A DNA stretch of 57,111 nucleotides from an uncultured Bacteroidales bacterium (lineage in GTDB: Bacteria; Bacteroidota; Bacteroidia; Bacteroidales; UBA10428), in assembly GCA_964569585.1 (NCBI GenBank), contig CAZMVE010000006.1, forward strand, positions 1-57,111. The letters are read 5' to 3'. Every line of letters starts with the position of its first letter. Position 1 is the stretch's first letter. The notes under the pieces are model-generated. The model worked only from the letters and a program-made list of their open reading frames with translations. It searched no databases and was not told the origin of the DNA. The translations under genes were made by a program, and so were the position numbers. Shown one piece after another: positions 6,559 through 57,111 of this stretch.

Positions 6559-7923
6559 ATGAAAATAATAATCCAGATTGGTCAGCTACTTTTATCCCTA
6601 TCCATTCTCATTATACTCCATGAATTAGGGCATTTCATATTCGCACGTATTTTTAAAACCCGTGTCGAAAAATTTTACTTATTTTTTAATCCATGGTTTT
6701 CACTTTTTAAGGTAAAAAAAGGAGAAACTGAATATGGTATAGGCTGGTTGCCTTTGGGGGGGTATGTAAAAATTTCCGGGATGATAGATGAATCGATGGA
6801 TAAGGAACAATTGAAGAAACCTCCCCAACCTTATGAATTTCGTACAAAACCTGCATGGCAGCGTTTATTTATTATGCTTGGAGGGGTACTGGTGAATCTT
6901 CTGCTTGGATTTTTAATTTTCACTTTCATTCTTTTTAACTGGGGCGAAAAATACCTGCCGAATACCAATCTAACAGATGGAATCTGGGTTACAGATTCGA
7001 TAATGTATGATGTGGGCCTGCAAACAGGCGATAAGATAATATCCGTTAATGATACGAAGCCTGAAAGTTTTATTAACATCCTGGAGGAGATGCTTTATGG
7101 AGGAGAAATGCATCTTGTCAGGAATAACCGCGATACTGTTGTGATTATTCCCCAGGATTTTGCAGGCAGAATTGTGGATAACAGCATTCACAAACGTGGA
7201 TTCCTTATTTACCCGAGGATACCTTTTATCATCAGAGAAGTTCCGGATACATCACAAAATGCCGGCTCCGGGCTTGAAGCCAAGGATATGATTGTTCAGA
7301 TCAATGATATACCGGTGAAATATGCCGACGAAATTGTATCAATACTCGATACTATTCGTGGGAAGACCATTTCGGTTGTTATCGACCGGAAAGGAGAAGA
7401 ACATGAACTGATGGTGGATGTGAGTGATGAAGGTAAACTTGGGATTGTATACGGTTTCCTGAACTTCGATCAACTCGAAAAATTGGGAGTATATAATTTT
7501 TCGACCTACGAATATACCTTCCTGCAATCGATTCCTGCAGGATTTCTTCGTGCTAAGGAAGAACTTCTTTCCTACATCCGGCAGATCGGGTTGATATTTA
7601 ATTTTAAATCGGGTGCTTATAAAGCTGTTGGGGGTTTTGGAGCCATAACGAATCTTTTTCCTCCAATCTGGAATTGGGAAGCTTTCTGGAATATTACCGC
7701 TCTTTTATCTATTATGCTGGCTTTTATAAATATACTTCCTATTCCTGCTCTTGACGGCGGGCATGTTACATTTTTAATTTTTGAAATGGTTACGGGGCGC
7801 AAACCCGGGGAGAAATTTCTTGAATATGCTCAAATGGTTGGTATGTTTATTATACTTTTCCTCCTGTTGTATGCAAATGGTAACGATGTTTACCGATTAA
7901 TTCTCCGATGGATCGGAAAATAA
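6559..7923 (+). CDS. rseP: RIP (site-2) zinc metalloprotease RseP
   Basis: HELGHF zinc motif in the first TM helix, central PDZ-like region, and C-terminal LPIPALDGGH motif. Confidence 0.85.
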   Translation: MKIIIQIGQLLLSLSILIILHELGHFIFARIFKTRVEKFYLFFNPWFSLFKVKKGETEYGIGWLPLGGYVKISGMIDESMDKEQLKKPPQPYEFRTKPAWQRLFIMLGGVLVNLLLGFLIFTFILFNWGEKYLPNTNLTDGIWVTDSIMYDVGLQTGDKIISVNDTKPESFINILEEMLYGGEMHLVRNNRDTVVIIPQDFAGRIVDNSIHKRGFLIYPRIPFIIREVPDTSQNAGSGLEAKDMIVQINDIPVKYADEIVSILDTIRGKTISVVIDRKGEEHELMVDVSDEGKLGIVYGFLNFDQLEKLGVYNFSTYEYTFLQSIPAGFLRAKEELLSYIRQIGLIFNFKSGAYKAVGGFGAITNLFPPIWNWEAFWNITALLSIMLAFINILPIPALDGGHVTFLIFEMVTGRKPGEKFLEYAQMVGMFIILFLLLYANGNDVYRLILRWIGK

Positions 7924-48388: not shown

Positions 48389-48549
48389 ATTGATAATTTT
48401 AAAACAAGAAACGAAAAATACTGCATAAAACAAATTCGTGAAATTTTAAGTTACCCCGATTCAGATCAACGGTATATTTTGAATAGCTTGCTTTGCAATC
48501 TGGCTTCAACAACTATTATGTAACGCTAACGCGGCACTTAGACAAATTT

Positions 48550-49142
48550 CATTTGCCCTTCGGGCACGAACAGCTGCACCGGGTGGGTCCCCGCTTCCGA
48601 AGCCAATGGCCGATTATAACATTCCGCATTAATTGCGGAATCCAGTTAAATAGGATGTACTTTTTCGGACGAGGAACCGGATTGCGGCGACAAATATTCA
48701 ATTCTCAACGACTCGAATATATTTAAAACGTCATTGCGAGCACAGCGAAGCAACCGAGAACGAAGTACGAGTTCGGCGAAGCCAATCTTGTTGGTTTATG
48801 CCCTCATGCCGGGCGGGCACTTCCTTTTCTCCTTAATGAGAAAAGGAAGCAAAAGAATCAAGGCCTGGGCTTCTCAGCGATTCACCAGCGGTTTGCTGTC
48901 TATCCCGATCAAGAATTTGTTGGATTTTGAATAACAAAACCTTACAAATTCTAAATCGGGATCATTTGCCCTTCGGGCACGAACAGCTTCACCGGGTGGA
49001 TACCCTCGCCTCCGAAGCCAATGGCCGGTTATAATATTCCGCATCAAATGCGGAATCCAGTGAAATAGGATGTACTTTTTCGGACGAGGAGCCGGATTAC
49101 GGGGACACTTTTTGGTGATGTGCCCTAAGGAGTTTGGATTGA
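48550..49142. repeat. Composite noncoding repeat, copy B (modules Z2 48550-48692, X2 48692-48820, Y2 48856-48962, Z3 48963-49142)
   Basis: The same module set as copy A, with an extra diverged Z copy at the left. Z2 differs from Z3 by scattered substitutions and a 2-nt indel. Y2 hairpin at 48902-48962. Confidence 0.85.
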
Positions 49143-49160
49143 TTTAAATCCTTTGGGGCT

Positions 49161-49412
49161 TGTTCTTACTACTCTTCCTGCTGCTCTGTCAGGTTCAACT
49201 GCTGTTCTGTCAGGTTCAGGCTTTGTTTTGTGTGCGTAAGGTCCTGTTTTATGACTTTCATGCCCTGTTCTGTGATGTTGATAGGATGTTCTGACTAATT
49301 CACATGCTGTTTTGAGCAGGGAAGGCTTTGTTCTATGGTTGTCGACTCCTGTTTTCAGGTGTTCGTTCCTTGTTTTGACAGGGTAAGGTTGTGTTTTGAG
49401 GTGTTCACATGG
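49161..49412. repeat. Array of 12 tandem direct repeats with an exact 21-bp period
   Basis: TGTTYT (TGCTCT in unit 2) begins at 49161, 49182, 49203, ... 49392, always 21 nt apart. The remaining ~15 nt of each unit are diverged. Confidence 0.9.
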
Positions 49413-49433
49413 AGGGTTGGGATATTTATATAA

Positions 49434-49466
49434 AACCCTGACAGGGTTCTGTACCCTGTCAGGGTT
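49434..49466. repeat. REP-like hairpin (14-bp stem, 5-nt loop)
   Basis: AACCCTGACAGGGT (49434-49447) pairs with ACCCTGTCAGGGTT (49453-49466). It is a sibling of the palindrome at 55135-55167 and lies 16 nt downstream of the stop of the minus-strand ORF 49482-50168. Confidence 0.8.
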
Positions 49467-49481
49467 AACAAGTGATCAAAA

Positions 49482-50168
49482 TCACTGTACGGTTTCCACG
49501 GTTTTATTTTTCAGGGTTTTGCCCTTGCCATAATCGGTAATGTTGCGCCACGATTTGTAGCGGTTGATGAATTCCTGATCTTCGACAAGGCCCTTTACCA
49601 GGTCGTCCATGATATCGAGGCTGTTACGCAGGTTTTTTATTTTTTCGACGATTTCTGATCCCTTCTCCGATTTGTCTTTCGATACGGTAGTGCGCTCGGA
49701 GGCCTGCTTCCTGTAGTCGGTAATTAGCTGACGGATATTATCTATATCGGCGTTCGTTACCTTGAATGATGCCAGGTTTTCAAGATTTTCAACAGCTTTA
49801 TCGGCAATACCGGCACAACGGTTTACGGATTCCGGTTCGGGCCCGCGTGAGAGTGCCGAGTAGGAAATACCTACCAGGGGGAGCAGGGTAAGCCGGTTGT
49901 TCTTCTTGGCCCAGGCGCTCATTTTTTTCATCAGTTTGTAAGTGGTGTTCATCAGCTGGTCATAGGTGTTGTCCTTTAAATCGGTTAATCCGCCGGGGTC
50001 CGTGGCCGATACCGATTCGTTCAGACTGTTCACCTGGTTATACTCCGTATCGAGCAGGGAGTATGTCGATGCAATTTCGGGCTCATTTTCCCAGAGGGAA
50101 CGTTCGTTGTTCATGCCGTTGAGTACTACGCCCAACATGTTCAGAAAATTAAATTGTGTTTGTCTCAT
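49482..50168 (-). CDS. Hypothetical protein (228 aa, predicted mostly alpha-helical)
   Basis: Clean ORF with coding-like composition. No family recognised. It is followed by the small hairpin AGTGATTTTGATCACT, which contains its TGA stop and a second in-frame TGA. Confidence 0.55.
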   Translation of the reverse strand: MRQTQFNFLNMLGVVLNGMNNERSLWENEPEIASTYSLLDTEYNQVNSLNESVSATDPGGLTDLKDNTYDQLMNTTYKLMKKMSAWAKKNNRLTLLPLVGISYSALSRGPEPESVNRCAGIADKAVENLENLASFKVTNADIDNIRQLITDYRKQASERTTVSKDKSEKGSEIVEKIKNLRNSLDIMDDLVKGLVEDQEFINRYKSWRNITDYGKGKTLKNKTVETVQ

Positions 50169-50633
50169 AATAATGTAAGGTTTTAAATTAATAAATATAA
50201 CAGTTAATGAAAACTCTATTGAAACCCTTACAGGAACCGGCTTATTTCAAATATAACTTCTTCTCTTACCTATGAGGCTGCCCCGTGAGGCAGCCTGTTT
50301 CGCAATTGCCTTTACCTGAATTGTTATTTACAACGTGAATATAAAAAAAATAGTATAAAAATAAAATATGTATGGGCCGTTGAGTGAAATTAATTTTGGA
50401 TTTTGTGATAGGGGTGAAAATTAAATCATTGTTTTCAAGATTATTACTGAAGAAAAGAATACGTATTTTAGGCCGGAACGGGCAAATTTTGTAAATTTCT
50501 GGGGAGTTAGGGGAGAGGAAAAATTAAAAGCCCCCGTATTGTAAGACGAGGGTGGCTTACATGTTTTCACAACGGAATAATTTTTATTTATTGAAACAAC
50601 TATGTATCACGATAGAATTAATTGAGTAATAAG

Positions 50634-50715
50634 AAAAAATCCCACGGAGTACGCGGGATTTAGAATTTCTTCGGCTTATAGCCTTGTTGTGAATTGTCTT
50701 TCGAATACGAAGATA
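50634..50715 (-). ncRNA. Predicted tracrRNA, divergent from cas9
   Basis: The minus strand reads CUUCGUAUUCGAAAGACAAUUCACAAC|AAGGCUAUAAGCCGAAGAAAUUCUAAAUCCCGCGUACUCCGUGGGAUUUUUU. The anti-repeat pairs with repeat nt 1-11 perfectly and with nt 12-16 after a 1-nt bulge. An AAGGCU..AGCC nexus-like hairpin follows, then a 9-bp terminator hairpin plus a U-run. The 5' end is not defined. Confidence 0.7.
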
Positions 50716-50730
50716 TAAAAAAATAATGAA

Positions 50731-53700
50731 ATGGAAAAAACGCTTGGTATTGATCTAGGAACAAACTCTATAGGTCTGGCTCTTAAAAAGGGAAATGAAT
50801 TCGAATGGTTTGGGGTATATACTTTTAAGAAAGGTGTTGGACAAGATAAATCTGGTGAGTTTTCTTTTGCTGCTGATAGGACAAAGCACAGATCATCCAG
50901 AAGATTATACAATGCCAGACGATATAGAAAATGGGAAACTTTAAAGGTGTTAATTGAAAATAATTATTGTCCACTTGATTTGAAAAATTTAAGTAAATGG
51001 AAACATTACATAAGAGGCATTGGAAGAAAGTATCCGATTGAAAATAATTCGTTCCAAAAATGGATAAAACTGGATTTTAATGGAGATGGCAAGCCTGATT
51101 ATTCTAGTCCTTATCAACTCAGAAGGGAGCTAATAGAAAAAGAATTAGACTTAGGAAATAAAGAAAACCGATATAAAATTGGCAGAGTGTTTTATCATAT
51201 TGCTCAAAGAAGAGGTTTTAAAAGTAGCAGAAAGCTCGGAGCCAATGAAAAAACAGCCGTATACAAAGGTAGTAGTGAAACAAATACGATCGGGCGGAAT
51301 GAATATGAAAGCTTACTTATTGAATGCGGTTCTTTAGGAGCAGCATTGGCAAGACTGGAAGAGGAAGGGATAAGAATTCGTAATAGATACACATTACGAA
51401 AAGATTATAAGAATGAAATAGATCAAATTATTTCAAAACAAAAAATTTCTGATGAATCCTTCTCAGAGCGGCTCATAAAAGCAATATTCTATCAAAGACC
51501 ATTAAGATCCCAAAAAGGTTTGGTTGGTAAATGTACATTAGAACCTAGAAAGCATAGATGTCCAATTAGCCATCCAAAATTTGAATTATATAGAGCTTGG
51601 TCTTTCATAAATAATATTAAGTTTAGGAACACAGATAACGGTGATTGCCAACAGTTACCTTTAGATATTAGAAATGGTATTTTTGAAAACGTCTTTATGC
51701 GTTTAAAATCAAGCTTTCCTTTTGAAGATATTAGAAAGTATATTGAAAAGAAAGGTGATAAAAACTGGGAATTAAATTATAAGAAAAAGGCTGATAAGGT
51801 AAGTGTTTCAGGTTGTCCGGTTTCTGCAAGATTTAGAGCTGTTTTTGGAGAAAATTGGCTAATATTTAAGAAAGAAATAGCCAGAACAAACAAAAAAGGA
51901 GAACCAGTAAACAAAACTTATGATATTGAGGGTATTTGGCATATACTGTTTTCTTCAGAAGACGAAGAGTTTATTGAAGAATTTTTATTGTCTGTTCTAA
52001 ACCTAGAGGAAGAAAATGTAAAGGGCTTAATGACATTATGGAACCATTTTCCGGTTGGGTATGCCAATTTAAGTTTAAAAGCCATCAATAATATCCTCCC
52101 TTTTTTACAAGAGGGCATTATTTATGTCGAATCCGTTTTTTTAGCTAAAATTCCTGAGATAATAGGGGATAAAACATTTAATCAAAATAAAGAATTAATC
52201 CTGTCAACACTGCAAACTGAAATTGAACAAAACAGATTAGAAAAAGCAGTAGTTGATATTACTAATAATCTTATTTCGAAATATTATTTACTTGACTATA
52301 ACGAAAGGTTTGGATGGAAAAATACTGATTACAAGTTGGATCGAAACGATAAAAATGACATAATACAATGTTGCATTGAGCATTATGGTGAAAAAAGATG
52401 GAATAATTTTATGGATGTTGTACTAAAAAATACAATTCTTGCAGGTGTAGAATCAAAATACCAGACTTTTTTTGAAGATCATAAAAGAGAACATATAAAA
52501 CAACCGCAATTATTAGATCAAATTCAGCAATGGATAATGGCTAATTTTAATGAAGTGACAGAAAAACAATTATCCAAATTATATCATCCTTCAAAAATTG
52601 ATATTTATCCTAGTATAGAGGGTCAAACATATTTAAAAAGTCCTAAGACGGGAGCCTTTAAAAATCCAATGGCCTATAAGACTTTACATATTTTAAGACG
52701 AGTAATTAATCATTTAATTGAAACTGGGAAAATTGATCAAGAAACCAGGATAGTAGTAGAAGTCTCGCGTGAAATGAACGACGCTAATAAAAGATGGGCA
52801 ATTGAAACATACCAAAGAAAAAGAGAAAATGAAAACAAGGAATTTGCTATTGCAATAGCAGGATTAGTTCAAGACCAGGATTTTAGGGGAGAAGCTGATC
52901 CCAGCAGTGAGAAAGACATGGAAAAGTTTAGATTGTGGTTTGATCAATTAGACGATAGCAGTACGATTTTAAAAGAGATTAATGCAACTAAATCAGACAT
53001 TGATAAATACCGGCTTTGGAAAGAACAGGGATGTAAATGTATGTATACAGGCAAAACCATAAACTTAACAGATTTATTTGATACAAATAAAATTGATTTT
53101 GAGCATACAATTCCTAGGAGTAAGTCATTTGATAGTTCAATGGAGAACATGACTGTCTGCTATGCGGACTATAACAGAAATGTTAAAAGAAATAAAATAC
53201 CTACTGAGTTACCGAACTATTTAGTTGACACACCGGAAGGTAATGCTATTGAACCTAGGTTAGAAGTATGGAGAAAAAAGGTTGATGAATTAAAAAAACA
53301 AGTTGAAGATTGCAAGTTTCGATCTAAAATAGCTATTGATAAAAAACAAAAAGATGAAGCCATAAAACAAAAGCACCTTAGGACATTTGACTTCGATTAT
53401 TGGAGAAATAAGCTGGACCGATTTACAAGAGAAGACATCCCAAGCGGATTTAAGAGAAGTCAATTAGTGGATACACAAATTATTACAAAGTATGCGTTTC
53501 ATTATTTAAAGACCGTTTTTCAAAAAGTAGATATCCAAAAAGGATTAGTGACTGCCGAATTTAGAAAGATTTATGAGATTCAACCCAAGGAGATTAAGAA
53601 GAATAGAACAAGGCACCATCATCATGCAATAGATGCGGCTGTTTTAACTTTAATTCCACCTGCTTTACAACGACAAGAAATTTTAAAGAAAGCCTATGAA

Positions 53701-54807: not shown

Positions 54808-54910
54808 AGTTTATTTATACCCACTTGTTGACCCGTCAGCTTCCAAAGGATATGGCAGCGTCTTAACGAAATTGAAGCTCCAGATTTCATGTAATAATTA
54901 AAACCGTAAT

Positions 54911-55534
54911 ATGCAAAAAATAGAACCTCTGCAACACGGCCAGTACTACCACATTTATAATTGCGGGATAAACGGGGAACAGTTGTTTCGCGAAACAACA
55001 AACTACGAACATTTTCTGCGGTTATATGAAAAATATATCGACCCTGTTGCCAAAACCTTTGCCTGGTGCCTGATGGGGAATCATTTTCATTTTTTGGTGA
55101 GAATCAGGGAAGAGAAGGAGATTGATGCAAAATTAAACCTGACAGGTTTTCAAAACCTGTCAGGTTTGGGAGCAACAAAACCGCTCCATCAGTACTTTTC
55201 AAACTTATTTAATGCATATACAAAAGCATTTAATAAATGGTATTCGCGTCATGGTAGCTTATTTGAACGACCCTTCAAACGGAAGCGAATCGATAACGAA
55301 TCCTATTTAAAACAAGTTGTAATTTATATTCATAACAACCCGGTACATCATGGTTTTTGCAACCACGCGATCGAATATCCATGGAGTTCATACTTAACCT
55401 GTATTTCTTTAAAAACTACAAAAATAAAACGCCCCGATGTACTGGACTGGTTTGGCGGTAAAAAACGGTTTGAAACGGACCATAAGGAAGCCGGAGCCGG
55501 AATTAACGAAGTTGAAGCCATTCTGGAATTATAA
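54911..55534 (+). CDS. IS200/IS605-type Y1 (HUH) transposase-like protein, RAYT-like (REP-associated tyrosine transposase family)
   Basis: HUH motif CLMGNHFHFLVRI and catalytic-Tyr context VVIYIHNNPVHHG. Size is 207 aa. It has a palindrome-encoded insert LNLTGFQNLSGL between the two motifs. No companion tnpB and no obvious IS ends were seen. Confidence 0.8.
   Translation: MQKIEPLQHGQYYHIYNCGINGEQLFRETTNYEHFLRLYEKYIDPVAKTFAWCLMGNHFHFLVRIREEKEIDAKLNLTGFQNLSGLGATKPLHQYFSNLFNAYTKAFNKWYSRHGSLFERPFKRKRIDNESYLKQVVIYIHNNPVHHGFCNHAIEYPWSSYLTCISLKTTKIKRPDVLDWFGGKKRFETDHKEAGAGINEVEAILEL
55135..55167. repeat. Perfect 33-nt palindrome (15-bp stem, 3-nt loop) inside the Y1 transposase-like CDS
   Basis: AAACCTGACAGGTTT-TCA-AAACCTGTCAGGTTT. 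It is translated in frame as LNLTGFQNLSGL. Confidence 0.9.
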
Positions 55535-55619
55535 TCGATGAATAATGCAGGAGCGGATCGCAATATAACTATGTAAAAATTCATGTATTTATTGTAATCT
55601 ATTTAAAAAATAAGTTGCT

Positions 55620-56519
55620 ATGATCAAGCGAACCCTGTATTTCGGAAATCCCTGCCACTTAAGTAAAAAAGACCTTCAACTGCTCTTCGAACCGAAGGAT
55701 GATAATGAACCGAAAACCATCCCGATAGAAGATATAGGGATGGTGGTTCTCGATAACCAGCAGATTACCCTGAGCAATGCCCTGCTGATGGCATTAATGG
55801 ACAATAATGCTGCCGTGCTTACAACAAACTTTCAGCATTTACCCGAAGGATTGCTTCTTCCTATGGCCGGGCATCATGCTTTTACCGATAAGGTGAAAAA
55901 TCAGTTCGAAGCTTCCGAACCTTTAAAAAAAAACCTCTGGCAGCAAACTGTATCGGCTAAAATAAGGAACCAGGCAGCTTTATTGAAGGTTATGGGCATC
56001 GATACGGAAAATATGCTGTTCTGGGCATCGAAGGTTCGCAGCGGCGACCCCGATAATTATGAAGCACGTGCTGCTGTCTGGTACTGGCAAAACCTGTTTG
56101 TAGGTAATGAAAAGTTTAAGCGTGGCCGTTTTGAAGCGCCGCCCAATAATTTGCTGAATTACGGGTATGCTATTTTGCGGGGTGTTATTGCCCGTTCGCT
56201 GGTAGGAAGCGGCATGACCACTTTTACAGGTATTCATCACCGGAATAAATACAATCCGTATTGCCTGGCCGATGATATTATGGAACCCTACCGGCCCTTT
56301 GTCGATAAGGTTGTGCTGGATATACTCTTTGAAGAAGAACAAATCGAAGAGCTTACGCCTGCAATAAAGAAAAAATTGCTGGTGATACCGGCCATGGATA
56401 TTGTGATCGATGCACAGTCGAGCCCCTTAATGATCGGGACACAACGTACAGCCGCCTCGCTGATGGATTGTTTTGAAGGGATCGGCAGAAAGATAATATT
56501 TCCTGTTTTGATATTATAA
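55620..56519 (+). CDS. cas1: CRISPR-associated endonuclease Cas1 (type II)
   Basis: A 299-aa protein starting MIKRTLYFGNPCHLS. NYGYAILRG and HHRNKYNPYCLADDIMEPYRPFVD are conserved Cas1 metal-site contexts. Confidence 0.93.
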   Translation: MIKRTLYFGNPCHLSKKDLQLLFEPKDDNEPKTIPIEDIGMVVLDNQQITLSNALLMALMDNNAAVLTTNFQHLPEGLLLPMAGHHAFTDKVKNQFEASEPLKKNLWQQTVSAKIRNQAALLKVMGIDTENMLFWASKVRSGDPDNYEARAAVWYWQNLFVGNEKFKRGRFEAPPNNLLNYGYAILRGVIARSLVGSGMTTFTGIHHRNKYNPYCLADDIMEPYRPFVDKVVLDILFEEEQIEELTPAIKKKLLVIPAMDIVIDAQSSPLMIGTQRTAASLMDCFEGIGRKIIFPVLIL

Positions 56520-56551: not shown

Positions 56552-56911
<360 letters not shown>

Positions 56912-57064
56912 CTAATTTACTGTATCCCTGACTGTATTTTAATCCCTGGGATACAGGAATGAAAAAACCGCCCTGCTAATGAACAAAGCGGTTATTCCGA
57001 CACAGTTTTTTAATCGTAAAAGACCACTAAAACACAGTAAAACCGGGCACTTCAGGCTTGTTAT

Positions 57065-57110
57065 GCTGTGTCAAAGATCGTTTAAATACAGAATGAAAGC
57101 AATTCACAAC
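57065..57110 (-). CRISPR. First (only visible) CRISPR repeat of the array adjoining cas2; the array continues beyond the window
   Basis: The minus strand reads GTTGTGAATTGCTTTCATTCTGTATTTAAACGATCTTTGACACAGC (46 nt). It begins GTTGTGA and ends ACAGC like the 46-47-nt Bacteroidota II-C repeats. Its first 16 nt are complementary to the predicted tracrRNA anti-repeat. With a single copy, the boundaries are approximate. Confidence 0.7.
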
Positions 57111-57111
57111 T

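Follow-up and report, generated by a model that had tools for sequence, protein, structure and literature searches.

Results and Discussion

The window analyzed here is a 57,111-nucleotide (nt) stretch of DNA from an uncultured Bacteroidales bacterium (GTDB UBA10428; GenBank assembly GCA_964569585.1, contig CAZMVE010000006.1, positions 1 to 57,111 of the forward strand). Between the cas9 and cas1 genes of a CRISPR-Cas locus it encodes an intact Y1 transposase-like protein with a histidine-hydrophobic-histidine (HUH) motif, predicted to belong to the repetitive extragenic palindrome (REP)-associated tyrosine transposases (RAYTs). Comparison with related loci reveals that the cas9-cas1 gap is a conserved site for such genes, located at the boundary between the effector (trans-activating CRISPR RNA (tracrRNA)-cas9) and adaptation (cas1-cas2-array) modules of Bacteroidota type II-C loci. 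A first-pass annotation of the window had asked whether the gene is a passenger that splits the operon or a functionally linked partner, and each alternative captures part of the picture: the slot is conserved and its link to CRISPR-Cas appears specific, but the occupant has been repeatedly replaced and the window copy looks like a recent recruit. The interpretation that we favor, with about even confidence, is that a RAYT enzyme that would cut and join single-stranded DNA (ssDNA) at specific hairpins resides at the junction of the effector and adaptation modules.

Conservation of the cas9-cas1 slot

Compared with canonical type II-C systems, such as those of Neisseria meningitidis and Flavobacterium spp., the window locus has the core parts in their usual order, no csn2 or cas4 and a 47-nt repeat of the Bacteroidota type, but it carries an additional co-oriented Y1 gene between cas9 and cas1. 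The occurrence of this arrangement was assessed in three sets of loci: two metagenomic relatives centered on Cas9 (L001 and L002, 56% identical to the window Cas9), ten loci centered on Cas1 (Cas1 63-91% identical), a set that is unbiased with respect to Y1, and 80 loci centered on Y1, taken from 78 GTDB species genomes and ranked by similarity to the window protein.

Y1 sequences follow cas9 in both Cas9-centered loci, and about eight of the ten Cas1-centered loci have a Y1 in the cas9-cas1 gap. A single gene is found there in L083, L085, L089, L090 and L091, and two in tandem (215 amino acids (aa) each, 94% identical), both of them maintained, in Salinivirga cyanobacteriivorans (L093; CP013118, 6602-7950). 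Two contigs with the same Cas1 (P0126; L086 and L087) both begin inside the C-terminus of a Y1 directly before cas1, and the 221-aa open reading frame (ORF) in the slot of the P0123 contig is very likely P0033, a Y1 63% identical to that of the window. There is no Y1 in L092, where cas9 overlaps cas1, nor in L088, whose gap holds palindrome remnants alone. A 149-aa "ORF" of L088 was considered as a Y1 and discarded, since it is the frameshifted C-terminus of Cas9; at 7464-7913 of this locus Cas9 runs on in another frame, owing to a frameshift or an assembly error. Degenerate Y1 pseudogenes were not found in the gaps of L088, L092, L048, L066, L071 or L083.

In the Y1-centered set, nine loci have the order cas9-Y1-cas1-cas2, and in L012 (Ancylomarina) the Y1 gene adjoins the far end of a type II-C array. 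Type II-C loci with the extra gene thus recur in Prolixibacteraceae, Hydrotalea (two loci), Pelobium, Fluviicola, Paenimyroides, Flammeovirgaceae, Salinivirga and one metagenome-assembled genome (MAG) labeled Akkermansia, with Salinivirga contributed by the Cas1-centered set. The Y1 of the latter MAG (L053) is of the cas-linked clade and groups with Bacteroidota, reflecting either horizontal gene transfer (HGT) into Verrucomicrobiota or a binning error. A simple recent insertion, the outcome against which the first-pass annotation had proposed to compare gene orders, would leave relatives with a cas9-cas1 junction lacking the gene; instead, relatives keep cas9-Y1-cas1, and the window Y1 is not a strain-specific passenger.

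The HUH and tyrosine motifs are kept in all 18 of the 18 cas-linked Y1s, and the ratio of nonsynonymous to synonymous substitution rates (dN/dS) is 0.12 for the tandem pair of L093 and 0.24 for L089/L090. Intact motifs together with low dN/dS indicate that the cas-linked Y1s are functional proteins.

The gap between cas9 and cas1 also gathers other small genes. A toxin-antitoxin-looking pair lies between Y1 and cas1 in L066 (5829-6310), and two unknown ORFs lie between cas9 and Y1 in each of L071 (8857-9938) and L048 (8797-9848).

Association with CRISPR-Cas operons

The Y1-centered loci were scanned for repeat arrays and searched with Pfam and tblastn. A further ten of the 80 Y1 genes are embedded in type I-B-like loci or border on them, and each has the same orientation as the cas genes. 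In L004 the gene is internal to the operon (cas6-Y1-cas8-cas7-cas5-cas3-SWIM-cas4-x-cas1), in L017 and L041 it stands between cas3 and cas4 (cas3-Y1-cas4-...-cas1), and in L011 a separate ORF lies between it and cas4 (cas3 ... Y1-x-cas4-cas1). It heads the adaptation genes in L038 (Y1-cas4-cas1-cas2-array), precedes cas6 in L064 (Y1-cas6-cas8...) and is located upstream of a cas8-cas7-cas5-cas3 pattern in L009, L013, L016 and L060. Labilibaculum filiforme is among the genomes with a type I-B-like context.

Altogether, CRISPR-linked loci of types II-C and I-B amount to 20 of 80 (25%) across the 78 species genomes, compared with an estimate, from genome sizes and CRISPR prevalence, of about 1% or less for a random gene to have cas genes no more than 10 kb away. 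The neighbors of the non-CRISPR Y1 loci fall into 159 Pfam families, with no family represented by more than 5 of 110 proteins and the majority housekeeping, leaving CRISPR-Cas as the only recurrent context of the sampled Y1 family. A more general context of the 'defence island' or HGT hitchhiker kind was considered and rejected, given that these non-CRISPR neighbors are diverse and mostly housekeeping. Of the two properties looked for in a CRISPR-associated protein, non-random linkage to cas genes across lineages was found, and co-evolution with a core Cas partner was not (Mantel tests, below). The pattern points to RAYT nucleases and CRISPR-Cas operons being specifically linked.

Classification of the Y1 protein

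The first-pass annotation had described an intact Y1 gene with both catalytic signatures, co-oriented with the cas genes and closely spaced from cas9 and cas1, and reading of the sequence bears out each of these features (Table 1). Against the NCBIfam model REP_Tyr_transpos (NF047646) the window Y1 scores 54.5 bits (E=1.2e-14), short of the equivalog cutoff of 80 bits, and the remaining cas-linked Y1s score 45-70 bits. This sub-cutoff score would place the window protein in a divergent subclass and not among the E. coli-type equivalogs. Pfam Y1_Tnp, at 18.4 bits, stays below its gathering score of 23 and aligns over the N-terminal half only.

An AlphaFold (AF2) model of the protein was obtained with a predicted local distance difference test score of 87 and a predicted template modeling score of 0.83. 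Its top Foldseek match is 4ER8, the E. coli TnpA_REP-REP complex (E=1.8e-8, TM-score 0.72 on the target), followed by the TnpA proteins of IS608, ISDra2 and IS200 at E ~2e-4 and weaker. A PDB search with a profile of 30 homologues returned 4er8 as the sole meaningful match, with both the HUH and the tyrosine regions aligned, and H58/H60 and Y139 are invariant in the homologue alignment. Because Y1_Tnp is sub-threshold, REP_Tyr_transpos is matched and the best fold match is 4ER8, the window protein is predicted to be a divergent RAYT-class Y1 HUH enzyme and not an IS200/IS605 transposase, in line with the RAYT-like single gene lacking tnpB that had been described earlier. The family is large, with more than 3000 close homologues, mainly in MAGs of Bacteroidales and other Bacteroidota, and 14,716 cluster representatives at E<=1e-3.

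The window Y1 shares with E. coli TnpA_REP the aligned HUH strand and tyrosine helix and, by homology, the character of a Y1 enzyme with one domain that acts on hairpins of ssDNA, but the two are only 18% identical and differ in length (165 versus 207 aa), the window protein having an additional C-terminal helical region and a palindrome-encoded loop. With the TnpAs of IS608, ISDra2 and IS200 it shares the Y1 HUH fold and presumably the chemistry. Unlike those elements, the window gene has no subterminal left-end/right-end hairpins, no tnpB or iscB partner and a single copy in the window; elsewhere, two of the sampled genomes hold two Y1 loci each.

Subclass 2.4 of TnpA_REP is characterized by the motifs NH[IFV]H and YIxNNP, a median length of ~194 aa, a distribution in Bacteroidetes and Cyanobacteria and low copy number (Quentin et al. 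2018, PMC6006769), and corresponds to Group 4 among the RAYTs in Bertels et al. 2017 (PMC5581495). In-frame REP insertions inside the gene, between beta3 (HUH) and alphaC, are unique to this subclass (PMC6006769). The window Y1 has NHFH, YIHNNP, 207 aa and a palindrome beginning 17 aa after H58, and thus fits subclass 2.4 on the basis of motifs and features. Motifs, length class and a REP-like palindrome in frame after the HUH strand are common to both, whereas the REP-like palindromes that flank the gene in subclass 2.4 are missing at the window copy.

Turnover of the slot occupant

The genes that fill the slot belong to at least four subfamilies with mutual identities of 25-50%: the window type ('NCGINGE'), a 'HANGxEN' clade, a 'KSVGGE/RAVGNE' group (L083, L089, L090) and a 'YNQGNN ... 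YIHQNPVKA' group (L085, L091, L093) that resembles subclass 2.6. In the trees, all of which were built by neighbor joining, the HANG clade is cas-linked in all eight of its eight members and the window Y1 is placed outside it, in general RAYT clades. The closest homologues of the window Y1, P0002 (77%) and P0008 (69%), are both located among housekeeping genes and not linked to cas genes. Similarity to the P0002 locus begins at 54895, 16 nt before the ATG of the window gene, and the upstream REP-like hairpin of L094 stops 15 nt before the start of this similarity. Since the closest homologues are free-standing and the similarity begins just 3' of the upstream palindrome of the P0002 locus, the window Y1 looks like a fairly recent recruit from a mostly non-cas RAYT lineage. 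The nearest Cas9 relatives of the window carry a HANG-type Y1 in the slot.

Mantel tests on identity matrices of 16 cas-linked loci gave r values of 0.03 for Y1 versus Cas9 and -0.11 for Y1 versus Cas1, neither of them significant, and of -0.24 for Cas9 versus Cas1. Co-evolution of Y1 with Cas9 or Cas1 was therefore ruled out, the identity matrices being uncorrelated.

These results do not support the tie to the IscB/IS200-IS605 ancestry of Cas9 that the first-pass annotation had suggested. They also bear on the reading that the original transposase (IscB-TnpA) would have been kept as a relic beside cas9. Co-orientation with and adjacency to cas9 and the shared Y1 fold are all that speaks for such a relic. 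Against it, the occupants of the slot are polyphyletic, drawn from several RAYT subfamilies, and uncorrelated with Cas9, relatives occur in type I-B operons, which have no Cas9, the closest homologues are free-standing, and the window protein is of the RAYT and not of the TnpA_IS200 class (Y1_Tnp sub-threshold, 207 aa, best fold TnpA_REP). In view of the tree and context data the relic is as good as refuted, and we consider it highly improbable.

The location of the closest homologues elsewhere in genomes, the onset of similarity 16 nt upstream of the ATG and the lack of co-evolution with the cas genes are what would be expected of a plain passenger, that is, a recent selfish insertion into the only permissive gap of the operon, unrelated to CRISPR-Cas. 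Such a passenger would hardly account for a slot filled in about eight of ten Cas1-centered and both Cas9-centered loci, for CRISPR linkage far above the ~1% or less expected, for a clade in which every member is cas-linked or for the lack of any other recurrent context, and we regard this explanation as improbable.

Shuffling of the flanking modules

The modules on either side of the slot differ in their histories. Between the window and L083/L085, Cas1 is 89-91% and Cas2 96-99% identical, compared with ~28% for Cas9 and 29-42% for Y1. Nucleotide similarity (68-81%) to L083, L084, L085, L086, L087, L088, L089 and L090 sets in abruptly at 55602-55619, 1-18 nt before the ATG of cas1, and continues over cas1, cas2 and the leader up to the repeats; upstream of 55602 the matches are limited to short conserved patches in the Y1 ORF and 5' of cas9 and, in L086, to the 3' end of the ORF. 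In the syntenic genomes of L089 and L090, the flanks and the Y1-cas1-cas2-array segment are kept and the cas9 region from the kept flank up to Y1 is replaced, with the break falling after the stop codon of cas9 and before the ATG of Y1. L085 and L090 have cas9 (71% nt) and cas1 (72% nt) in common, with unrelated Y1s between them. Near-identical cas1-cas2-array modules are found paired with Cas9s only ~25-30% identical, which indicates that effectors are swapped frequently among these II-C loci.

Rearrangement also affects the Y1 gene itself. At 13927-14449 of L002 an N-terminal Y1 fragment stops exactly at the 3' edge of its own palindrome, and behind it comes a full copy, ~88% identical by manual count; the two palindromes have common outer stems and different, but compensated, inner stems. 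Similar partial tandem duplications occur in L001 (4679-5146) and L094 (18-1323). Recombination breakpoints thus lie on both sides of Y1 and at Y1 palindromes, as follows from the L083/L085, L089/L090, L085/L090 and L002 comparisons and from the palindromes found between Y1 and cas1.

Modular shuffling of cas9 and cas1-cas2 is well known. The L089/L090 exchange resembles that of the Flavobacterium psychrophilum type II-C locus, in which cas9 is replaced by recombination and tracrRNA, cas1 and the neighborhood stay in place; that locus differs in that no Y1 was reported and its transposases are IS982 and IS256 insertions (PMC10309648).

Palindromes within and around the gene

The first-pass annotation had described the gene as having no recognisable ends and suggested a look for subterminal hairpins flanking 54808-55619. 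The flanks of the gene contain no palindrome of 12 bp or more, which agrees with the description, but a perfect palindrome inside the gene had been overlooked. The arms of this 33-nt sequence (55135-55167) are 100% complementary. The peptide that it specifies, NLTGFQNLSGL, lies in the surface loop behind the HUH strand, the sole low-confidence part of the AF2 model. At the same position, homologues either keep the peptide or have TPDRVQNPVRG, which, judging from the peptides, seems to come from a palindrome of this kind translated in a different frame.

Perfect palindromes of at least 12 bp are present between the HUH and tyrosine motifs in 30 of the 78 relatives that have both catalytic motifs. 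They occur in all three reading frames and have 23 distinct arm sequences; palindromes that stay perfect across so many arm sequences imply that both arms change together. Among relatives not linked to cas genes, 34 of 65 have a perfect palindrome of at least 12 bp in or adjoining the Y1 gene, with more copies in the flanks, and palindromes of the same type reach ~1 per kb near Y1 versus 0.035 per kb in flanks. In several relatives such a palindrome lies between Y1 and cas1, where the window has none. Within the 57 kb of the window, the in-ORF palindrome is accompanied by one dispersed copy (Table 1), and the motif CCTGACAGGTTT, with at most one mismatch, has six matches versus 0.23 expected, four of the six being overlapping or both-strand matches within 55135-55167. 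The palindromes differ from canonical REPs, which carry a GT[AG]G foot that is missing here. The in-ORF hairpin of the HANG clade (AACTTTTCCAAAGTT...) shows conservation of third codon positions (64-91% versus 35-49% elsewhere), and has zero dispersed copies nearby.

As RNA, the window palindrome is very stable (-31.8 kcal/mol, z=-6.4), and its terminator score is confined to the minus strand. Together with the conservation of hairpin nucleotides beyond coding needs and the palindromes retained without a Y1 gene in L088, these properties raise the possibility of a chiefly regulatory role, in which the palindrome, or the gene as a donor of spacer or promoter, would act in the manner of intercistronic REPs and the enzyme would be secondary. 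Imaginable effects are stabilization of cas9 mRNA, attenuation or uncoupling of cas1-cas2 and blocking of antisense transcription from the array. We judge this to be an improbable explanation, as it leaves the HUH/Tyr conservation and low dN/dS unaccounted for, the perfect in-ORF palindrome is absent from 48 of 78 relatives, and no sense-strand intrinsic terminator is predicted either at the palindrome or between cas9 and cas1.

A model for the resident enzyme and its alternatives

In the model that we favor, the window Y1, like E. coli TnpA_REP and IS608 TnpA, would bind its own palindromes folded as ssDNA hairpins, and would cut and rejoin DNA beside them through a 5'-phosphotyrosine intermediate. 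The hairpin-marked gap would thereby become a site-specific recombination junction, which could account for Y1 genes arriving and being replaced repeatedly, for their duplication in part or in tandem and for the exchange of cas9 and cas1-cas2 cassettes. Y1 is probably co-transcribed with cas9, cas1 and cas2, given the lack of a predicted sense-strand terminator between cas9 and cas1, and the stable hairpin in the mRNA may tune the expression of cas1-cas2 downstream. A direct role of the enzyme in immunity would be hypothetical.

Several points weigh against this model. Cleavage at the palindromes is extrapolated from homologues only ~18% identical, the canonical GT[AG]G (or its complement) is found near the hairpin foot in only 6 of 84 palindromes, and the window copy, having no flanking palindromes, may have lost its own mobility. 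Ordinary homologous recombination involving genes that are conserved would also be expected to leave breakpoints at gene edges. The enrichment near CRISPR-Cas is not itself explained by a recombination junction, and a functional link fits it equally well. Finally, the samples are modest (10 Cas1-centered and 80 Y1-centered loci, the latter picked by similarity to the window protein), and the type I calls of L013, L016 and L060 were made from tblastn to Cas3 and ORF-size patterns only.

A functional link of this kind would exist if Y1 were a genuine CRISPR accessory protein, participating with Cas1-Cas2 or the array in spacer acquisition, a task for which any RAYT-type enzyme would suffice. Possible activities include the making or trimming of ssDNA prespacer ends and the resolution of integration intermediates. 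The position of the gene is suggestive, for it immediately precedes, in the same orientation, the first gene of the adaptation module, cas1 in type II-C and cas4 in L017, L038 and L041, although in L011 an extra ORF separates it from cas4 and in type I-B its position varies (cas6-cas8, upstream of the operon, cas3-cas4). Such a role would agree with CRISPR-Cas being the sole recurrent context of the family, with the kept catalytic residues and purifying selection, and with one clade being exclusively cas-linked and having no dispersed palindromes nearby. It is harder to reconcile with the lack of co-evolution with Cas1 or Cas9, with near-identical Cas1-Cas2 loci that hold Y1s of unrelated subfamilies, with nearest relatives of the window copy that are not cas-linked and with the loci that have no Y1 (L092, L088). 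Moreover, characterized II-C systems are not known to need such a gene. We therefore consider an accessory role unlikely, if less so than a passenger or a chiefly regulatory element.

A broader proposition covers both enzymatic possibilities, namely that RAYT-type Y1s are an unrecognized CRISPR-associated class in Bacteroidota type II-C (always between cas9 and cas1) and type I-B loci, and would either take part in spacer acquisition or, as a site-specific recombinase, exchange effector and adaptation cassettes where hairpins mark the junctions. We advance it tentatively, as somewhat more probable than the accessory role alone and clearly less so than the junction model.

Organization of the window locus

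The window holds cas9, cas1, cas2, a tracrRNA (inferred) and an array (cut by the window end), and csn2 and cas4 are absent; the four protein-coding genes cas9, Y1, cas1 and cas2 are all on the plus strand (Table 1). Judged from the sequence, the type II-C system appears complete. The tracrRNA candidate was inferred from an anti-repeat matched by eye to the repeat at the window end and from a predicted terminator-like site on the minus strand. The repeat is also related to the arrays of L086-L091. The ORF of cas2 opens at a TTG; translation more probably begins at an in-frame ATG located at 56567. The window contains neither a tnpB gene nor a second copy of Y1; PADLOC models gave zero matches, and Rfam gave zero matches at the gathering threshold across the window, with chance-level matches only in 48400-50760.

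Table 1. Features of the CRISPR-Cas locus and the Y1 gene in the window.
Feature	Coordinates	Strand	Evidence or remarks
Dispersed palindrome, same type as in-ORF one (AACCCTGACAGGGT tctgt ACCCTGTCAGGGTT)	49434..49472	.	Just downstream of minus-strand gene 49482-50168
Candidate tracrRNA	50628..50730	-	Anti-repeat ~50686-50716; terminator hairpin 50661-50637, then T-run
cas9, type II-C effector, 1358 aa	50731..54807	+	TIGR01865 E=1e-113; HNH_4, RuvC_III and Cas9_a domains
cas9-Y1 spacer, 103 nt	54808..54910	+	Palindrome-free
Y1 (HUH) endonuclease/transposase gene, predicted RAYT class, intact, 207 aa	54911..55534	+	ATG start, uninterrupted ORF
HUH motif H58-F59-H60, metal-binding catalytic His pair	55082..55090	+	Sequence reading; H58 55082-55084, H60 55088-55090, within GNHFHFLV
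REP-like palindrome in frame within Y1 ORF	55135..55167	.	16-nt arms, 1-nt loop
Catalytic Tyr Y139, YIHNNP helix	55325..55327	+	Sequence reading; motif YIHNNPV
Y1-cas1 spacer, 85 nt	55535..55619	+	Nucleotide similarity breakpoint versus other II-C loci at 55602-55619
cas1, type II, NMENI class	55620..56519	+	TIGR03639 (cas1_NMENI) E=8e-86; homologues up to 94% identical
cas2	56561..56911	+	TIGR01573 E=3e-20
First CRISPR repeat, 47 nt, at window's end	57065..57111	-	100% identical to the repeats in L085, whose array has 28 copies

A 16-nt direct repeat, TTAACGAA(A/G)TTGAAGC, is found at 54863-54878 and 55503-55518, bracketing most of the Y1 gene; its upstream copy reads LNEIEAPDFM* and the C-terminus of the window Y1 reads INEVEAILEL*. 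An older Y1 relic in the 103-nt gap between cas9 and Y1 was considered on these grounds and is unsupported by blastx and the Y1 hidden Markov model.

Between cas2 and the array, a terminator-like hairpin on the minus strand (56966-56993) is consistent with transcription of the array towards cas2. Farther upstream, two intergenic direct repeats of ~145 nt (48549-48692 and 48962-49107), 90-93% identical, contain GC-rich stem-like segments, have no Rfam match and could be a small structured RNA or a two-copy element resembling a miniature inverted-repeat transposable element. They are followed at ~49170-49420 by about 11 degenerate units of ~21 nt with the core CTGTTYTG, a run that stops at the dispersed REP-like palindrome; Tandem Repeats Finder calls only 49178-49218, and the remaining units were read from the sequence.

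Relation to previous work and significance

The RAYT subclass, the in-gene REP (PMC6006769) and the core of canonical type II-C systems were already known; what appears to be new is the recurrent embedding of RAYTs in CRISPR-Cas operons. No published description of a cas9-Y1-cas1 order or of such embedding was found in a literature search with partial coverage of subscription papers, and an earlier mention is possible. The RAYT surveys (PMC5581495, PMC6006769) report no RAYT in a CRISPR operon, the word 'CRISPR' having 0 occurrences in the second, and the embedding is likewise unreported in the Shmakov preprint on CRISPR-linked genes and in the survey of tracrRNA/Cas9 families. Bertels et al. 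2017 speculated on a CRISPR-like role for RAYTs and REPINs (PMC5581495). The nearest catalogue entry is 'Y1 TPase type III' (2023, PMC10910872), a CRISPR-linked group of 6 members with a gene of ~1 kb; like the window gene it is a Y1 transposase-like gene flagged as CRISPR-linked, but according to its description it goes with type III systems and not with II-C or I-B.

In public annotation the cas-linked Y1s are named 'transposase' or 'hypothetical' only, a vagueness that would explain why the link could have escaped guilt-by-association screens in which the family is clustered as a whole. Cultured strains with cas-linked Y1s are available in Salinivirga cyanobacteriivorans (WP_057952187.1, WP_057952186.1), Hydrotalea flava (WP_068246096.1), Paenimyroides aquimaris (WP_091096901.1) and Labilibaculum filiforme (WP_101260960.1).

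The host function of RAYTs has been a question since 2010, and here a RAYT family has one specific recurrent context, inside CRISPR-Cas operons. If the enzyme had a role in acquisition, the loci described would represent a new II-C variant with a new accessory activity. If it promoted cassette exchange, it would provide a mechanism by which cas9 and cas1-cas2 are shuffled as modules, a process with a bearing on how anti-CRISPRs are escaped. Were RAYT-type Y1s to be a CRISPR-associated class, the long-enigmatic 'domesticated' RAYTs would gain a concrete cellular function.

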